Shown one piece after another: positions 7,578 through 39,379 of a stretch of DNA of 42,938 bases. Positions within the stretch are counted from its first letter, which is position 1. Every line of letters starts with the position of its first letter. Made by a program: the position numbers and the translations under genes. Source of the DNA: a virus (taxonomy: Duplodnaviria; Heunggongvirae; Uroviricota; Caudoviricetes); IMG/VR virus record IMGVR_UViG_2541047938_000003, positions 1 through 42,938 of that record. The stretch is one strand, 5' to 3'. The notes beneath the pieces are model-generated. The model ran no database searches. It was not told the origin of the DNA and was given only the letters and a program-made list of their open reading frames with translations.

Positions 7578-8255
7578 TTATGGGATGTTTAGTATTTTGG
7601 CATCAACCACAACGCCGATGATTTTGCAGTTTCCATTAATTTCTAGCATTGGATATGCGGGGTTAAGGGGCTTTAGGAAGCGTCTGCCGGCATCGATTAC
7701 AAGCTTCTTAAAGGTCGCTTCGTTATCGCCTTCTAGCTTCGCGACAACCAGCTTTCCGTTGCGCGGCTCGACTTCAGGATCAACAAGTATCGCTGCTCCC
7801 TCGGGTATGCTCAGTCCAGCCGGGGAGGTCATAGAATCCCCTTTAACGTCCAGCCAGAATGAATCTTCTGAGCAGTCAACAGTCGTGTCATACCAGCGAT
7901 CTATCGCTCTTCGGTGATAAGGTTCTACAGCTTCCATCCATTGCCCCGCGCTTACCCAGCTGATTACAGGATAACTTCCTTTTGTCTCGTTCAGTCCTCG
8001 AAATGCAACGTTCGAAGGTTCTTCACTGGCGTGTAAAACATCCATCCAGCCAAAAGGCAGATCAAGCGCAGTTTCAATTTTGCGAGCCATCTTATCGCCG
8101 ATATTGCGATGAGGGTTTGGTCCCAGTAGCTGACTAAGCGCAGCCGGACTTGTCTCGATGAGCTCGGCAAACTGCGCTTTGGTCATTCCAGACTCGTGCT
8201 GACGCTTCTCGTACAGCGCTTCCAGGTTGGCTTTTCTGATTTCTTTATTTTCCAT
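7578..8255 (-). CDS. cI: cI-like repressor (HTH plus S24 LexA-type autopeptidase domain)
   Basis: Start set at ATG 8255 (MENKEIRK...); HTH region QFAELIETSPAALSQL; S24 motifs GDSM and VVAKL; operator repeats on both sides. Confidence 0.85.
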   Translation of the reverse strand: MENKEIRKANLEALYEKRQHESGMTKAQFAELIETSPAALSQLLGPNPHRNIGDKMARKIETALDLPFGWMDVLHASEEPSNVAFRGLNETKGSYPVISWVSAGQWMEAVEPYHRRAIDRWYDTTVDCSEDSFWLDVKGDSMTSPAGLSIPEGAAILVDPEVEPRNGKLVVAKLEGDNEATFKKLVIDAGRRFLKPLNPAYPMLEINGNCKIIGVVVDAKILNIP

Positions 8256-8273
8256 ACCTGCATTGTTACTGCT

Positions 8274-8339
8274 TTTAGCAAAATGATAAATGTGCAAATT
8301 GCTAAATGATGCTTGCGTAGTATTTAGCATAACGCTAAA
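8274..8339. promoter_or_regulatory. OR-like operators and candidate rightward promoter
   Basis: 8274-8290 TTTAGCAAAATGATAAA; 8323-8339 TTTAGCATAACGCTAAA (perfect palindrome); candidate promoter TTGCGT (8313-8318) - 17 nt - TAAACT (8336-8341) overlapping the operator. Confidence 0.5.
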
Positions 8340-8371
8340 CTCCAAATCAAACGACTCACCCGGAGACACCA

Positions 8372-8605
8372 ATGAGCACTGAACTACACCGCTGGCGCAA
8401 GGCCGCCACTACCGACGAATGGGCGCAGCTCGCAAAGTTGGCTAACACGACGCCAGGTTACCTGGACCAGATCGCCTACGGAAATCGCCGGGCATCTCCA
8501 GAAATGGCATCTGCTATCGAGAAAGGCACGAAGAATTTTCACCGCCAGGCTCCGGTCCTAAAAGAAAGCCTGGTATTCGCATCGCCGCGTGATACTGCGG
8601 CCTAA
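8372..8605 (+). CDS. Cro/YdaS-like small HTH regulator
   Basis: 77 aa, divergent from the repressor; GGAG RBS; HTH-like WAQLAKLANTTPGYLDQIAYG. Confidence 0.6.
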   Translation: MSTELHRWRKAATTDEWAQLAKLANTTPGYLDQIAYGNRRASPEMASAIEKGTKNFHRQAPVLKESLVFASPRDTAA

Positions 8606-8622
8606 CCACGAAAGGGAAAGCA

Positions 8623-9165
8623 ATGCATTCACTTGCGTATCAACACAATACCGGAATACACCCGGGAGCGATGATAAACCGCGCTCAAGCTAAAGCGACG
8701 CCGGACCACGAAAAGATCCGCGATGCGGTCCGTGCCTGGTCATCGGCGCTGGATAATCAGGACGTGGTGTCAGCGCTGATCATCAACGAATACCGGGAGC
8801 AGGGCGGGACCGCCATCAGCTTTCCGGACGACATCAGCCGGGCGCGCCAGAAGCTGTTCCGCTTCCTGGATAACCGCTTCGACTCTGAGCAGTACCGCGA
8901 GAACGTGCGCCAGCTGACGCCCGCAATCATGGCCGTTTTGCCGCTGGAGTATCGCCATCGACTTCTTCCAGAGGACAGTTTTATGTCCCGCTTAGCTCGA
9001 CTTGAGAAAGAAACGAGCGAGGCGAAAGTGGCCGTTGCGATGAACGCCCCGCGTCACCAGAAGCTCAAGGAACTCAGTGAGGGGATTGTAGAGATGTTCC
9101 GTGTCGACCCGGATCTGACCGCGCCGCTGATGGCTATGGTCACTTCGATGTTGGGGGTTATGTGA
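8623..9165 (+). CDS. CII-position regulatory protein (possibly YdaT-like)
   Basis: 180 aa directly after the cro-like gene; family assignment is a memory-based guess. Confidence 0.4.
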   Translation: MHSLAYQHNTGIHPGAMINRAQAKATPDHEKIRDAVRAWSSALDNQDVVSALIINEYREQGGTAISFPDDISRARQKLFRFLDNRFDSEQYRENVRQLTPAIMAVLPLEYRHRLLPEDSFMSRLARLEKETSEAKVAVAMNAPRHQKLKELSEGIVEMFRVDPDLTAPLMAMVTSMLGVM

Positions 9166-9255
9166 TGGGAAGTTTCAAAAATGGCGAAAGCCAGTCTGCG
9201 CGAACAGAACTGGCCTTCAGATGCAAATCGTGTGCACTCATTGCAGGAGGAATAA

Positions 9256-9401
9256 TGGCAAAAAATCCACGCTATTACCATACCGCTGTACATAAAAACA
9301 TAACCCGCGACCGCTTCATCCGCTCGGTTAACCCGATTGTGGCAGAGAAGATGCGCGCCATCCTGGAAGAACTGAAACGTAAGGAGAGTGGCCGTGGGTA
9401 A
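9256..9401 (+). CDS. Small hypothetical protein
   Basis: ATG at 9256 preceded by AGGAGG; 48 aa (MAKNPRYYHTAVHKNITRDRF...). Confidence 0.3.
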
Positions 9402-10293
9402 CGTATCCAATTTAGCCGAAGCCAGAGAGGCCAGAAGGCTCCAGAAACCGCGCACGAATGACGGTAAGGGGTTTGCCTTGCTGCACCGTAAAATTATGGA
9501 TGTGCCGTTCTACAAGGACGCTGAGGCGGCTCATTTATGGGTTCACATGCTCCTGCGTGCTAATCACGAACAGACACTGGTATCTACTGATGTTGGCGAT
9601 GTGATCTGCGAGCGCGGAGAGTTCATCACCGGGCGAAACACACTGGCAATGGAAACGGGTTTGACCGCTGATCGCGTTAAATCCCTTCTCCGTAAATTCC
9701 AGAATCTGGGCATGATCACCACCAAATCGAACAACCGTTTTACTGTTCTAAAAGTGGTCAAATATGACGAATATCAGTCAAATTTTTGTCCAGCAGATGT
9801 CCAGCCAGCGTCCAGCCCAAACATAGTCGTACCAATGCCTGCGGAGGTGGAGTGTCCAGCCGATGTCCAGCCAGTGTCCACAGATAACAATATATTAAAT
9901 AACTTACTACCTAACGGTAGTAAGTATGTCGCAAATGACCAGAAACCCGCTGAAGAGAAAAAGTCTCGTTTGTCATGCGATGAAGTATGGCAATGCCTGA
10001 AAGACGAACTGCCTGAAGCACGGGGATGGAGATGCCTCACTGATGAGCGACGCAATCTGATCCGCACATTCTGGGGTAAGGCTAATAAGATTGCCCGCAA
10101 CCTGGACGGCAAGCCGATGGATATGGACGGTTTCAGAAGCTATCTGCGTTACATCGCTCAGAACTGCCGCTGGATGCTTGAAGACCGACCAGACCAGAAG
10201 TCTGGGAAGACCTGGCGCCGCATGAAATTCGATAAGTTCCTGACCGAAAAGCTCTACATCGAAGTGCGCGAGGGGGATCGTGATGACCGCTGA
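9394..10293 (+). CDS. Replication initiator (lambda O-like role) with internal iterons
   Basis: Winged-helix-like N-terminus; embedded repeats and adjacent AT-rich tract; followed by DnaB helicase. Start may be GTG 9388 or 9394. Confidence 0.6.
   Translation: MGNVSNLAEAREARRLQKPRTNDGKGFALLHRKIMDVPFYKDAEAAHLWVHMLLRANHEQTLVSTDVGDVICERGEFITGRNTLAMETGLTADRVKSLLRKFQNLGMITTKSNNRFTVLKVVKYDEYQSNFCPADVQPASSPNIVVPMPAEVECPADVQPVSTDNNILNNLLPNGSKYVANDQKPAEEKKSRLSCDEVWQCLKDELPEARGWRCLTDERRNLIRTFWGKANKIARNLDGKPMDMDGFRSYLRYIAQNCRWMLEDRPDQKSGKTWRRMKFDKFLTEKLYIEVREGDRDDR
9787..9884. repeat. Candidate origin iterons (about six copies of TGTCCAGCC-like motif) inside the initiator gene
   Basis: TGTCCAGC 9787, TGTCCAGCC 9798, CGTCCAGCC 9810, TGTCCAGCC 9853, TGTCCAGCC 9865, TGTCCACA 9877; followed by AT-rich tract and palindrome CTTACTACC-TAAC-GGTAGTAAG (9904-9925). 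Confidence 0.5.
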
Positions 10294-11716
10294 TTTCATG
10301 GCTGTACCACAAAACCTCGAAGCAGAGCAGAGCGTTATCGGTGGCCTGCTGCTGGATGATGACAACAGCGAGCGAGTCCAGAAGGTTCTGGCGATGCTCA
10401 AGCCTGAATCGTTCTACAGCCGACCTCACCAGCTGATCTTTGCCGAGATGCGCCAGATGTTCCGCGACAACAAGCCAGTCGATGGTCTGACATTGTTCGA
10501 CGCGCTCGAAGGCAAAGGGCTCGCGGAGCAGGTAGGTGGCTTTGCTTACCTGGCGGAGATCGCCAAGAACACTCCCAGCGCTGCAAACATCGTGGCATAC
10601 GCTGCGTCAGTCCGGGAAGCCGCAATGGAGCGCTACGGTATCAGCCGCCTGACCGAAGCTACTGAGCTGCTGTATTCCCGCAATGGCATGAGCGCCACGC
10701 AGAAGTACGAGGCCATTCAGGGTATTTTCACCCAGCTCGCAGACCATTCAAAAACCGGTAGTCGCCGTGGGTTGCGGTCGTTCGGCGAGGTTATGGATGA
10801 CTGGGTAGCAGATCTGGAGAAACGCTTTGACCCTTCAGGCGAACAGCGCGGCATGAGCACCGGCATCCTGTCACTCGACCGGCTGCTGGCGCCGAAAGGT
10901 CTGGTTAAAGGCTCTCTGTTCGTGATTGGCGCAAGGCCAAAGATGGGCAAGACAACCCTGTACGGTCAGATGGCGATCAACTGCGCGGTTCGTGAGAAAA
11001 AGCCAGCGCTGATGTTCAGCCTCGAAATGCCGGGCGACCAGATCCTCGAAAAACTGGTTGGTCAGAAGTCTGGAGTTAACCCGAGCATTTTTTACATGCC
11101 AGCCACGGATGACGCCGATGACCAGTACCAGGGCGATTACGACGGCGACTTTAAGAAGGCGATCGCCACCGCCGGGCGATTGAGTGAAATCGACATGCTG
11201 TACATCGACGATACTCCTGGCCTGTCACTGGCGCACATCGTTAGCGAAAGCCGCCGAATCAAGCGCGAGAAGGGCTGCGTAGGAATGATTTTGGTTGACT
11301 ACCTGACTCTGATGACCGCCGAAAAAGCCGACCGTAATGACCTTGCCTACGGGATGATCACCAAAGGGTTGAAGAACCTCGCTAAAGAGCTTGGCTGCGT
11401 CGTCGTGCTGCTGACCCAGCTCAACCGCGAACTGGAGAAGCGAGTGAATAAACGCCCGTTACCGAGCGATTCCCGCGACACAGGACAGATTGAGCAGGAC
11501 TGCGACTACTGGGTTGGTATCCACCGGGAAGGTGCTTTCGATGACAGCGTGCCGCCGGGAGAAACCGAGTTAATCCTGCGACTCAATCGCCACGGCAGTA
11601 CCGGAACGGTTTATTGCAATCAGATCAACGGGGCAATTTACGACACAGACCAGCAGGCCGCCGCCGCAGAACGACGCGGGCGTGAGCAGCAGCCGAAAAA
11701 GAAAGGGGGATTCTGA
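10283..11716 (+). CDS. dnaB: Replicative DNA helicase, DnaB family
   Basis: DnaB-type N-terminus (QNLEAEQSVIGGLLLDD), Walker A GARPKMGKTT, typical RecA-like core. Confidence 0.9.
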   Translation: MTADFMAVPQNLEAEQSVIGGLLLDDDNSERVQKVLAMLKPESFYSRPHQLIFAEMRQMFRDNKPVDGLTLFDALEGKGLAEQVGGFAYLAEIAKNTPSAANIVAYAASVREAAMERYGISRLTEATELLYSRNGMSATQKYEAIQGIFTQLADHSKTGSRRGLRSFGEVMDDWVADLEKRFDPSGEQRGMSTGILSLDRLLAPKGLVKGSLFVIGARPKMGKTTLYGQMAINCAVREKKPALMFSLEMPGDQILEKLVGQKSGVNPSIFYMPATDDADDQYQGDYDGDFKKAIATAGRLSEIDMLYIDDTPGLSLAHIVSESRRIKREKGCVGMILVDYLTLMTAEKADRNDLAYGMITKGLKNLAKELGCVVVLLTQLNRELEKRVNKRPLPSDSRDTGQIEQDCDYWVGIHREGAFDDSVPPGETELILRLNRHGSTGTVYCNQINGAIYDTDQQAAAAERRGREQQPKKKGGF

Positions 11717-17703: not shown

Positions 17704-17778
17704 GGGTCAGAAGCACAGCGGTTGTGCGTTCGGCTGTTAACCGAATGGTCGAAGGTTCGAATCCTTCCTGTCCCGCCA
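17704..17778 (+). tRNA. tRNA-Asn-like gene (anticodon GUU), phage-encoded
   Basis: Hand-folded cloverleaf: D-stem GCAC/GTGC, anticodon stem TTCGG/CCGAA with loop CTGTTAA, T-arm GAAGG-TTCGAAT-CCTTC, 3' GCCA; one U-U mismatch in acceptor stem. Confidence 0.55.
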
Positions 17779-35641: not shown

Positions 35642-36585
35642 TGGATACTTTTTACCGTGATTATCGGCTGACGGTGGGGATCGGCAATCAAGCAGTGATT
35701 ATCGAGCCACCGATCACCGTGTCATTCAAGGCGCTGGAAACTGTGGACAAGAAGTCACTCGGCAAGCTGAGTGTGTCCATCAACGGGCTAAAGCCTTCCA
35801 CGCGTCTGCAATTGCTCAAGTCCGAAGATGAAGAGAAGTATATCCCCGTTCGACTCGAGGTTGGTTACGACGGCAAGCTGCGCCAGGTATTTCAGGGTTC
35901 GGTTAAAAGCGGAGCAGTAAAGCGTGAGGGGGCGATCCACATCGTCAGCCTGGAATGTGAAGACGGTGGCCACGACTATATCAACGCCTTCACATCGCGC
36001 ACGGTACGCGGGAAAGATCAGGTCGTCGATTCTGTCTTGCAGGATATGCCAAACACGAAAAAAGGCTCTGTGACGAAGCAACAAGCACTCATCAGGCCGA
36101 AGGTTCTGGTAGGTAGCTCCAGTAAAATTCTTACCGATACCCTTGCGCCCGACGAGTCATTTTTCATCAAAGATGAGCGCGTCCACATCCTCAAGGCTAA
36201 TGAGGTTACATCGGGTAACATTCCAGTCGTGAATGCGCGTAGCGGCCTGCTAAATACGCCTCAGGCTACGAAGATTAGCGCGCAGGATGACGGCGGGAAA
36301 AAGGCCAAAAAGCCGACCAATGAGCCTGATACGGATCCGGCAGGCAAAAAAGATACTGACTCGAGTACCTTAGCCAAATCCTCGAAAGGGCAGATCGTAT
36401 TCGATACGAAACTGAATCCTATGCTGGTGATCGGTGGGCTTTGCGCTGTTGAAAGCGTGACGAACCCCGCGTTAAACGGGGTTTATAAGATATACCAGAT
36501 TGAAACCAGCGGGCAGAACAACGGGGCAGCCTGGTATCAGAAGGTGGTATGCCAGCCTGCCGGAAATTACTCAGTTGTTAACTGA
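35638..36585 (+). CDS. Baseplate hub-like protein (putative)
   Basis: 315 aa; position between tape measure and spike/baseplate genes. Confidence 0.45.
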   Translation: MMDTFYRDYRLTVGIGNQAVIIEPPITVSFKALETVDKKSLGKLSVSINGLKPSTRLQLLKSEDEEKYIPVRLEVGYDGKLRQVFQGSVKSGAVKREGAIHIVSLECEDGGHDYINAFTSRTVRGKDQVVDSVLQDMPNTKKGSVTKQQALIRPKVLVGSSSKILTDTLAPDESFFIKDERVHILKANEVTSGNIPVVNARSGLLNTPQATKISAQDDGGKKAKKPTNEPDTDPAGKKDTDSSTLAKSSKGQIVFDTKLNPMLVIGGLCAVESVTNPALNGVYKIYQIETSGQNNGAAWYQKVVCQPAGNYSVVN

Positions 36586-38214: not shown

Positions 38215-39379
38215 CGACAACGGCCTTGAGACAAGCACTCTCCGGGAGTTATTTCAGGAACTGAGCGACGGATATAAGGGAATTTATGGTCAGGATATCG
38301 ATTTAGACCAGGAATCTCCCGACGGTCAACGCGTGGCAATCGAAGCTCAGGCTCGGGCAGATATTGAAGCCGCGCTGCAATGGCTTTATTCCCAAATGGA
38401 CCCCGATTTTAATACTGGTGATATGCAGCAGATTATCGCCAAACTTCACGGGCTTTTCCTTCGCCCCGGCTCCCGGTCTCAGCGTGACCTTAAAGTCACA
38501 ACAGACAGGCCGGTGCTTCTCTATAGCGGGTACAAGATACGGGACCAGGCAAATCAGGTCTGGGCTATCCGACAGGACGTGACCGTTCCGGCGGGCGTCA
38601 CAACAGCCACCTTTTTTGCTCAAAACTTTGGGAAAGTTACTGGGCTTGTGAATGACACCTTCACTCAACTCACACCAGAACCAGGGATTGTGAGCATTAT
38701 CTCTGATTCCGCGGTTGTGGTCGGTCGGGATGAGGAAACGCCTGAAGAATTCAGGCAACGCCGGAACCGGTCGCTTGAGAACCCGGCAACAGGTAGCACT
38801 GGGGCGGTTTTCGCTAAAGTTGCTCAACTGACAGGTGTAATTGATCTGAATATCGGAGAGAACGACACAAAAATTGATAATCCGACGACGGGTATCCCGG
38901 CCAATTCAATATGGCTGGTCGTTGAGGGGGGAGCGATTTCAGAAATTGTGGAGGTGATGGTTAAACAGAAAGGCGGTGGAACGGGAACGAAAGGCAGCAT
39001 AACCGGACGTTTTACCGAGACCCTGATTCGGCCTGACGGCACTTCATTTCTGATAGCCCATGAACTTCAGTTTGATCGGCCCATCTATAAGCCGCTTCAT
39101 ATCAGGCTTAATGCCCGCCGGAAGATTCAAAGCGAACCGATAGATATCGATACTCTCAAAAAATCTCTTGCATCACGCACCATGCATATTGGTGAGTCTG
39201 TGGATGCCAATGAATTTTATGAGAATGGGTATGGGGTAGGACGGGTAAATTTTGTGCTGACCAATCTGCAAATTAGCAGTAATGGGGCAGATTACACCGA
39301 TGCTGAGTTATCGCCAGGCTTTCAGGGAAAGTTCACGTTGAGTGTGGAAAATATAGACGTTAACGAGGTGGTCCAGTGA
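38198..39379 (+). CDS. Baseplate J-like protein
   Basis: 393 aa; size and order (W-J-I-fibre) typical of contractile-tail baseplates. Confidence 0.55.
   Translation: MALQFSDNGLETSTLRELFQELSDGYKGIYGQDIDLDQESPDGQRVAIEAQARADIEAALQWLYSQMDPDFNTGDMQQIIAKLHGLFLRPGSRSQRDLKVTTDRPVLLYSGYKIRDQANQVWAIRQDVTVPAGVTTATFFAQNFGKVTGLVNDTFTQLTPEPGIVSIISDSAVVVGRDEETPEEFRQRRNRSLENPATGSTGAVFAKVAQLTGVIDLNIGENDTKIDNPTTGIPANSIWLVVEGGAISEIVEVMVKQKGGGTGTKGSITGRFTETLIRPDGTSFLIAHELQFDRPIYKPLHIRLNARRKIQSEPIDIDTLKKSLASRTMHIGESVDANEFYENGYGVGRVNFVLTNLQISSNGADYTDAELSPGFQGKFTLSVENIDVNEVVQ

Follow-up and report, generated by a model that had tools for sequence, protein, structure and literature searches.

The window analysed here is the whole stretch of 42,938 nucleotides of the IMG/VR record IMGVR_UViG_2541047938_000003, a virus of the class Caudoviricetes. 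Inside its replication initiator gene it contains six short direct repeats (iterons) in two clusters, followed by an AT-rich tract and a perfect palindrome, and the gene of a DnaB-family replicative helicase comes next (Table 1). An earlier note on this DNA, made from the sequence alone, had described this region as a candidate replication origin, and the comparative evidence collected here supports that description. The selection acting at the DNA level, the invariant geometry of the element, the covariation of the iterons with the N-terminal domain of the initiator and the rep_origin annotation of the equivalent stretch in HK620, L and Sf6 together suggested that the element is a phage replication origin of the HK022/HK620/phage-L/Sf6 type, and we put the probability of this reading at roughly 0.8.

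Table 1. Genes, protein domains and DNA elements of the replication region, with positions in the window.
Feature	Position	Strand	Description or basis
cI-like repressor gene	7578-8372	-	Divergently transcribed
cro-like gene	8372-8605	+	
cII/YdaT-like gene	8623-9165	+	
Small orf48/DUF2740-type open reading frame	9162-9401	+	Between the cII-like gene and the initiator gene
Replication initiator gene	9394-10293	+	299 amino acids, HK022-O/phage-L-gp18 type; phrog_345 and homology
N-terminal winged-helix-like domain, presumed iteron-binding module	9469-9777	+	Residues 26-128; AlphaFold2, hhalign, Foldseek
Iteron cluster 1	9787-9817	+	Three 9-mers, 11-bp period: 9787-9795 TGTCCAGCA, 9798-9806 TGTCCAGCC, 9809-9817 CGTCCAGCC
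Inter-cluster spacer	9818-9852	+	Constant length, free sequence; 33-nt class 9820-9852 used for diversity
Iteron cluster 2	9853-9883	+	Three 9-mers, 11-bp period: 9853-9861 TGTCCAGCC, 9864-9872 TGTCCAGCC, 9875-9883 TGTCCACAG
AT-rich tract, presumed DNA-unwinding element	9882-9901	+	AGATAACAATATATTAAATA; 20 nt, 90% A+T
Perfect palindrome	9902-9925	.	10-nt arms ACTTACTACC (9902-9911) and GGTAGTAAGT (9916-9925), 4-nt loop TAAC
C-terminal helical domain, presumed helicase-recruiting module	9976-10290	+	Residues 195-299; AlphaFold2 confidence score 77-88
DnaB-family replicative helicase gene	10280-11716	+	Overlaps the initiator stop by 14 nt
Ren-like gene	After the helicase gene	+	

The iterons are six 9-mers of the type TGTCCAGCC, as the earlier count of about six repeats in two clusters had it, and their start-to-start spacing is 11, 11, 44, 11 and 11 bp. 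From one triplet to the other it is 66 bp (6 x 11), and the six copies share one phase; the sixth copy is truncated, and likewise the last copy in all the relatives. The window has the phased three-copy pattern at two places, while 100 dinucleotide shuffles gave none, and exact TGTCCAGCC was found three times against 0.29 expected, every time inside the array. The array is translated as CPADVQPASSP ... CPADVQPVSTD, and the repeated PADVQP peptide pointed out previously is thus real, the repeat at the peptide level being the 33-bp unit only. Because 11 leaves a remainder of 2 on division by 3, the copies of the 9-mer fall into different frames, all three being used, and the 11-bp repetition is therefore not one of the peptide. 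The 9-mers have no dyad symmetry, and inverted repeats were not reported inside the iteron array. DnaA boxes with up to one mismatch were absent from positions 9700-10000 and their window-wide counts were those expected by chance; the likeness between such a box and the sixth iteron (GTGTCCACA) was discarded. About 2 kb upstream of the origin, the cI-like repressor gene contains two exact copies of GTCCAGCC, at 7814-7821 and 7848-7855. They are spaced by 34 bp, do not keep the 11-bp phase and lie in a module not shared with the relatives, and were rejected as iterons, their occurrence probably being due to chance.

The AT-rich stretch said to follow the repeats was found directly at the end of cluster 2, where the local GC content drops to 25%, and the palindrome begins directly after its last base. 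The inverted repeat around TAAC had been described as perfect with arms of 9 bp; it is indeed perfect, and the arms are 10 nt long. As single-stranded DNA the palindrome folded with -9.3 kcal/mol (z = -5.1), and 0/200 shuffles folded as well. The RNA folds of the same region gave z = -3.4 for the plus strand and z = -1.7 for the minus strand.

Selection on the element was examined in 86 loci with close relatives, which gave 70 unique 900-nt genes for comparison. The relatives from the viral contig scan are 95-100% identical, and are suited to diversity statistics and not to covariation. The nucleotide diversity (pi) at third-codon positions was 0.002 in the 7-mer iteron cores, 0.006 in the 9-mer iterons, 0.005 in the AT tract and 0.007 in the palindrome, compared with 0.093 over the remainder of the initiator gene. 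The third-codon diversity of the iteron cores was 15-45 times below that found elsewhere, with 0.002-0.006 for the cores of cluster 1. The 2-bp linkers between iterons showed an overall pi of 0.12 over all codon positions, which is about the synonymous rate, and the 33-nt spacer (9820-9852) a pi of 0.108, again over all codon positions and near the synonymous level; neither of them ever changes in length. The pi of the AT tract was 0.0016, with one variable column among 18 (9884-9901, 70 haplotypes), and the palindrome arms were invariant in 47/47 ori haplotypes. The freely varying linkers inside an otherwise frozen array argue against gene conversion, which in any case cannot explain the constraint on the AT tract and the palindrome, as these are single-copy. 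Thus, the sequence comparison strongly supports purifying selection at the DNA level on the iterons, the AT tract and the palindrome.

The geometry and the covariation of the element were followed in a diverse set of 19 genes, drawn from the tblastn listing and from exact-protein look-ups, to which Izhakiella, Citrobacter and another Enterobacter were added later. The core spacing of 11, 11, 44, 11 and 11 bp was kept in 18/18 six-iteron relatives, down to 42% protein identity, and an AT tract of 87-95% A+T was found at the equivalent place in 19/19. The repeats, whose possible absence from homologous initiator genes had been raised earlier, were present in every full-length homologue whose DNA was examined. 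Four iteron types with a common CCA centre were recognised: type A, TGTCCAGCC, in the window, CobraSix, Chronis and many prophages; type B, TTACCAGCA, in HK022, HK620, VT2-Sakai and P0014; type C, TGTCCAACG, in L, SE1Spa, Sf6, HK75 and ENT47670; and type D, GTGCCAACA, in the Klebsiella phage ST512-KPC3phi13.1. The N-terminal domains (residues 26-128) were 71-100% identical within an iteron type and 45-64% between types, without exception in 19/19 genes, and the N-terminal tail and the C-terminal domain assorted independently of the iteron type. In contigs from one genome per species, 7/7 loci with six in-phase A-type cores lay inside initiator homologues, all in Enterobacterales. Most of the 79 pattern matches in these contigs were unrelated, being single chance matches, whose number is about that expected for 18 fixed bases in 596 Gb by a rough estimate, or simple tandem repeats, the latter including the Bordetella metagenome-assembled genome L155 and the ends of Melainabacteria contigs. 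The spacer of the window contains at 9828-9838 the sequence GTACCAATGCC, similar to the B-type iteron GTACCAGCAG and found also in the spacer of HK620 (ATACCAATGCC). This sequence lies 20 bp past the third core without keeping the phase, the more distant A-type members lack it, and it may be a relic.

Natural recombinants were found among these genes. P0014, a protein of a Klebsiella pneumoniae prophage (loci L003/L004 3390-3540), combines a B-type (HK620-type) N-terminal domain and, in its gene, TTACCAGCA iterons with an N-terminal tail and a C-terminal domain that are 99-100% identical to those of Chronis, a type A member. Its palindrome is of the Chronis/window type, and the crossover on the right side falls within the AT tract. 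In P0041, L113 and Izhakiella, the A-type N-terminal domain and A iterons are joined to three other C-domain types. These recombinants indicate that the N-terminal domain and its iterons are exchanged as one unit, which is what a binding protein and the sites it binds would be expected to show. As a separate observation, the Izhakiella australiensis locus (L142) carries an HK620-like C-terminal domain ending in EHDDR, and the arms of its palindrome, CAATACTATC-TGAC-GATAGTATTG, are of a seventh sequence. At 9409-9500, in the 5' part of the initiator gene, nucleotide diversity was zero in the 70 haplotypes, and the DNA was 85% identical to gene O of HK022, HK620 and Stx phages, which otherwise have different N-terminal domains; judged from sequence, this part looks like a conserved left anchor for the homologous exchange of the cassette of N-terminal domain and iterons.

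Shorter forms of the initiator with 277 amino acids were found in Salmonella prophages (P0008, L005/L006 3395-3425). They carry an exact deletion of 66 bp (22 amino acids) in which the spacer and one cluster are lost, the clusters being fused into one three-iteron array, and the AT tract and the palindrome are intact. The identical 277-amino-acid protein P0008 occurs on 20 Salmonella contigs and is, for this reason, probably functional. Two plasmid records carrying the module were considered as natural evidence for autonomous replication and set aside. The only small one, LR134256.1 (L183; Klebsiella aerogenes "plasmid 3", 20,968 bp, labelled circular), was rejected as an autonomous replicon, because its frameshifted chromosomal genes (glk, ypdA and cynX) make it appear to be a mis-assembled chromosomal or prophage fragment, and the other match, in a plasmid of 324 kb, belongs to a prophage region.

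The palindrome varied among the relatives in a manner that keeps its pairing. Seven arm sequences were found overall, ACTTACTACC, ACTTATTACC, TCTCTAATAC, (A)CTCTCTTAC, TCTCTTCTAC, ACTCAATATC and CAATACTATC. The arm length was 10 in 18/19 genes, all of which pair perfectly, and 9 nt in ENT47670, where the outermost pair is lost. The loop was of 4 nt with the pattern T-R-A-M, and the palindrome centre was 37.5 or 40.5 bp past the last iteron core, the window having 37.5 bp like L, Sf6, ENT47670 and ST512phi13.1. Among ten distinct sequences, 7/10 pairs had changed on both sides, and the paired fraction of cells was 99%, compared with 68% for shuffles and 29-48% for slid controls. The peptides encoded by the palindromes are unrelated (for example LLPNGSKY, ISNTDVLES and SLTNVRE). 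The palindrome also showed no one-to-one relation with the C-domain type, as the window-type arm occurred on two C-domain types and the window-type C-terminal domain with two arm sequences. Many arm sequences with near-constant arms and loop, and with no such tie to a protein domain, speak for selection on pairing more than for a protein site that co-evolves, and point to selection on DNA structure and not on a protein recognition sequence. The covariation alone fits a DNA hairpin or cruciform and an RNA structure alike. AT-rich flanks promote cruciform extrusion, and a hairpin forming after melting of the AT tract could plausibly stabilise the opening. That such a hairpin or cruciform is an obligatory, structure-specific part of the whole origin family, acting as a trap of the melted state or as a site of helicase entry or priming, is a tentative idea that we hold to be rather doubtful. 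We found no study of such a palindrome element in these origins in the literature.

The initiator protein matched phrog_345, "replication initiation O-like", with an E value of 1.5e-67. Its full-length identity in tblastn was 52% to O of HK022, HK620 and VT2-Sakai, 49% to gp18 of phage L and SE1Spa, and 42% to Sf6 gp43 and HK75 O, and these matches covered 92-100% of the query with E values of 1e-97 to 1e-63. The most likely start is the GTG codon at 9394, with AGGAG at 9382-9386 upstream and with the relatives annotated from the equivalent codon, and it replaces the position 9388 taken as the start of the gene before. In the AlphaFold2 model, the N-terminal domain showed a predicted local distance difference test score (pLDDT) of 70-86 and a helix/strand pattern typical of winged helix-turn-helix proteins. 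Residues 129-191, with pLDDT below 50, form a predicted disordered linker, between the winged-helix-like N-terminal domain (residues 40-128 in the model) and the helical C-terminal domain (195-293), and the entire origin element is encoded there; the protein evidently tolerates an origin spelled in the codons of such an interdomain linker. The Foldseek matches of the model were weak throughout (E >= 0.018) and concerned winged-helix DNA binders, the best of them including the centromere-binding winged-helix proteins AspA and TubR, and a sequence search against solved structures gave nothing meaningful. Because of the weak Foldseek matches and a predicted template modelling score of 0.36, the model was used for domain boundaries only.

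The comparison with the origin regions of related phages, which the earlier note had recommended, showed the same structure under a rep_origin annotation in the GenBank records of HK620, L and Sf6, where it is marked as putative for L and Sf6. HK620, HK022, VT2-Sakai, L (ST64T type), SE1Spa, Sf6 and HK75 have the same 3+3 iterons at 11 bp with the clusters 66 bp apart, then the AT tract and the palindrome of 10-nt arms and a 4-nt loop in the linker-coding part, and the DnaB-family helicase gene next. The window differs from them in its iterons (TGTCCAGCC, against TTACCAGCA in HK620 and HK022 and TGTCCAACG in L and Sf6), in its palindrome arms (ACTTACTACC, against TCTCTAATAC), and in both domains of the initiator, the N-terminal domains being 46-64% identical and the C-terminal domain being of a different type with 46-47% identity. 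The array has been called the likely origin of phage L, and P22 itself has different repeats of roughly 20 bp (PMC8022706), so the family considered here is of the L/HK022 type and not of the P22 type. No published description of the TGTCCAGCC type as an origin was found in the literature searched, and CobraSix annotates the gene as hypothetical.

A more distant relationship was found with phage SPP1, whose G38P has been established by experiment as an origin-binding replisome organiser and binds oriL and also oriR (PMC5615212). The N-terminal domain of G38P is homologous to that of the window initiator (hhalign 97%, E 9.6e-11, 32% identity over 110 columns; tblastn 32% identity, E 1e-4). SPP1 gene 38 contains, right after the part coding for this domain, an array of 11-bp period with the consensus AGAAACGACACG in 4.6 copies, followed by an AT-rich array of 9-bp period, AACAATGAT, in 3.6 copies (L102 538-627 = X97918.2 35937-36026), and both arrays lie inside the cloned oriL fragment 35801-36151. 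The SPP1 repeat is unrelated in sequence (AGAAACGACAC) and forms a single array against 3+3 in the window, and no equivalent perfect palindrome was seen by eye in SPP1. The C-terminal part is unrelated as well, and SPP1 has the separate loader G39P, whereas in the window the helicase gene follows the initiator gene directly, with no intervening gene and so no separate G39P-like helicase-loader gene at this junction. In a scan of 1.84 billion representatives, the G38P-type N-terminal domain was found in 12,507 clusters at E <= 0.001, and some 2,000 of the representatives reached E <= 1e-10. In several of the more distant among 15 sequences read, this domain is followed by a short peptide in duplicate and then by an Asn-rich stretch (AT-rich codons), and on these sequences the layout of iterons followed by AT-rich DNA is probably general for the family. 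Two proteins with G38P-type N-terminal domains, P0132 and P0145, have duplicated iteron-encoded peptides (for example CPTDVQRIS x2) and a quite different C-terminal region without the CRWMLEDR motif, which suggests, at the level of sequence, that the same origin cassette has been coupled to other helicase-recruitment modules.

The resemblance to ori-lambda, which the region had been said to mirror, holds for the layout and is an analogy only. Both origins lie in the middle of the initiator gene, between the segments for DNA binding and partner binding, in the rightward early operon (PMC7466680), and both have iterons, an AT-rich tract and an inverted repeat in this order, that of lambda being an imperfect one just past the AT tract in our own reading of its sequence. 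The iterons of lambda are four of 18 bp, each an inverted repeat, at a spacing of ~20-24 bp (annotated 39034-39118), whereas those of the window are six direct 9-mers at 11 bp. Lambda O recruits the host DnaB through P, and the phage in the window encodes its own DnaB-family helicase. The name "O-like" given to the gene therefore stands by position and PHROG label only, since similarity to lambda O was undetectable (hhalign probability 0.06% with the family profile; no PF04492 match at E <= 0.01).

From this anatomy we infer a pathway in which the N-terminal winged-helix domain would bind the six TGTCCAGCC iterons, with N3-CCA-N3 as their core. The spacing of 11 bp and 66 bp would place the protomers on one helix face and may thereby build an O-some-like nucleoprotein complex, and the spacer, free in sequence and constant in length, would let both triplets cooperate in a single complex. 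This complex could destabilise the adjoining 20-bp tract of 90% A+T, and the C-terminal domain would bring in the DnaB-type helicase encoded directly downstream, no loader gene intervening. The palindrome at the far edge of the tract would most plausibly extrude as a hairpin or cruciform once the tract opens, and may either stabilise the open state or mark a loading or priming site.

Several observations weigh against the origin reading or against parts of this pathway. No experimental proof of origin activity in this subfamily was found in the literature searched, and GenBank and PMC8022706 use the words "putative" and "likely". The covariation of iterons and N-terminal domain is confounded by physical linkage, as the two are adjacent in the DNA, and this is mitigated by the exact cassette boundaries of P0014. 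Types A and C both contain TGTCCA, and it is not certain that their specificities are distinct. The existence of three-iteron variants means that six copies are not obligatory, which is consistent with the report that two iterons and the AT tract are sufficient for unwinding at ori-lambda (PMC7466680). The identities of the C-terminal domain and of the first 90 helicase residues covaried weakly over 20 loci (Spearman 0.19); this is too weak for a specific pairing and leaves the helicase-recruitment step without comparative support. Finally, the minus strand from 9925 to 9902 scores as terminator-like, with a 10-bp stem and then TATTTAATAT.

The last point bears on the possibility that the palindrome and the AT tract are an RNA element, namely a weak antisense intrinsic terminator or a hairpin in the mRNA transcribed rightward. 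The record of phage L annotates a minus-strand terminator over the equivalent palindrome, the covariation would fit RNA pairing equally, and the plus-strand RNA fold given above is in its favour. The stem, however, contains no more than 3-4 G-C pairs, neither strand yielded a promoter-like site between 9100 and 10400, the minus-strand fold is unexceptional, no Rfam match was obtained at E <= 1 (8300-10800 searched), and one terminator-like match is the level of shuffles (mean 1.2). In addition, ori-lambda likewise has an inverted repeat just past its AT tract. We consider an RNA element unlikely. It is still less probable that the iterons bind the initiator mainly for regulation or copy control (autoregulation, handcuffing, titration or a partition-like function) with replication starting elsewhere. 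Plasmid iterons do serve both initiation and control, SPP1 G38P binds a second site, oriR (PMC5615212), and the weak structural matches include the centromere-binding AspA and TubR. Against such a role stand the AT-rich tract that invariably adjoins the array, the replicative helicase gene that comes next, a position equivalent to that of SPP1 oriL, and the confinement of TGTCCAGCC in the window to the array.

That the repeats are a duplicated peptide motif (CPADVQP...) in a flexible linker, kept for the protein and without function in DNA, is effectively refuted. The 33-bp unit does encode a repeated 11-amino-acid peptide that is conserved among homologues, and disordered linkers such as the one predicted here are places where repeats are common. 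The 9-mer, however, encodes different residues every 11 bp in three frames, the cores have a third-codon diversity 15-45 times below that elsewhere whereas the peptide separating the repeats shows no constraint, the spacing is kept to the base pair across four sequence types, and the AT tract and the palindrome, which are not repeated, are equally constrained. A miniature CRISPR array, with two 28-nt repeats and one 38-nt spacer, has been reported at evidence level 1 for an identical sequence in a prophage of Enterobacter sp. LU1 (repeat TGTCCAGCCGATGTCCAGCCAGTGTCCA, 1 spacer; chromosome positions 1,143,757-1,143,850, which are 9787-9880 of the window; PMC7402333, Table 4). The anatomy of the locus refutes it: only two repeats are present, inside a conserved coding gene, each of them is made of three 11-bp units, the "spacer" is a homologous drifting linker in all relatives, and the surrounding replication module offers no cas context. 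The call is a false positive, and one that CRISPR finders will repeat.

Beyond the origin itself, the window is a mosaic lambdoid temperate phage whose left arm is like that of phi80/HK225 and whose replication module is like that of CobraSix. The helicase matched TIGR03600 (phage_DnaB) with 548 bits against a cutoff of 499, and also PF00772 and PF03796. The final 48 amino acids of the small open reading frame before the initiator gene match P22 orf48 and HK022 gp53 (DUF2740, phrog_1913). Its PHROG label of "tail protein" looks like a propagated mis-annotation, given its location in the replication module in every relative examined. A phage-borne tRNA-Asn (GTT) gene is present at 17704-17778.

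The origin type itself was already known from the annotation of the model phages HK620, L and Sf6. What is new here is the TGTCCAGCC specificity class, the quantitative evidence of selection, the cassette of N-terminal domain and iterons, and the covarying hairpin. These findings locate the probable origin of a widespread group of prophages of Enterobacter, Klebsiella, Salmonella, Citrobacter and E. coli, whose genome records name the initiator "DNA replication protein" or "hypothetical", and they explain the recurrent false CRISPR call in these prophages. If the origin reading is true, synonymous recoding of the initiator gene would destroy the origin, which is a practical warning. The TGTCCAGCC iterons and the GTGCCAACA iterons of the Klebsiella phage join TTACCAGCA and TGTCCAACG in a natural set of matched pairs of initiator domain and iteron, which would be useful for studying how specificity changes in winged-helix initiators, and the natural swaps define the N-terminal domain together with its iterons as the unit that is exchanged.

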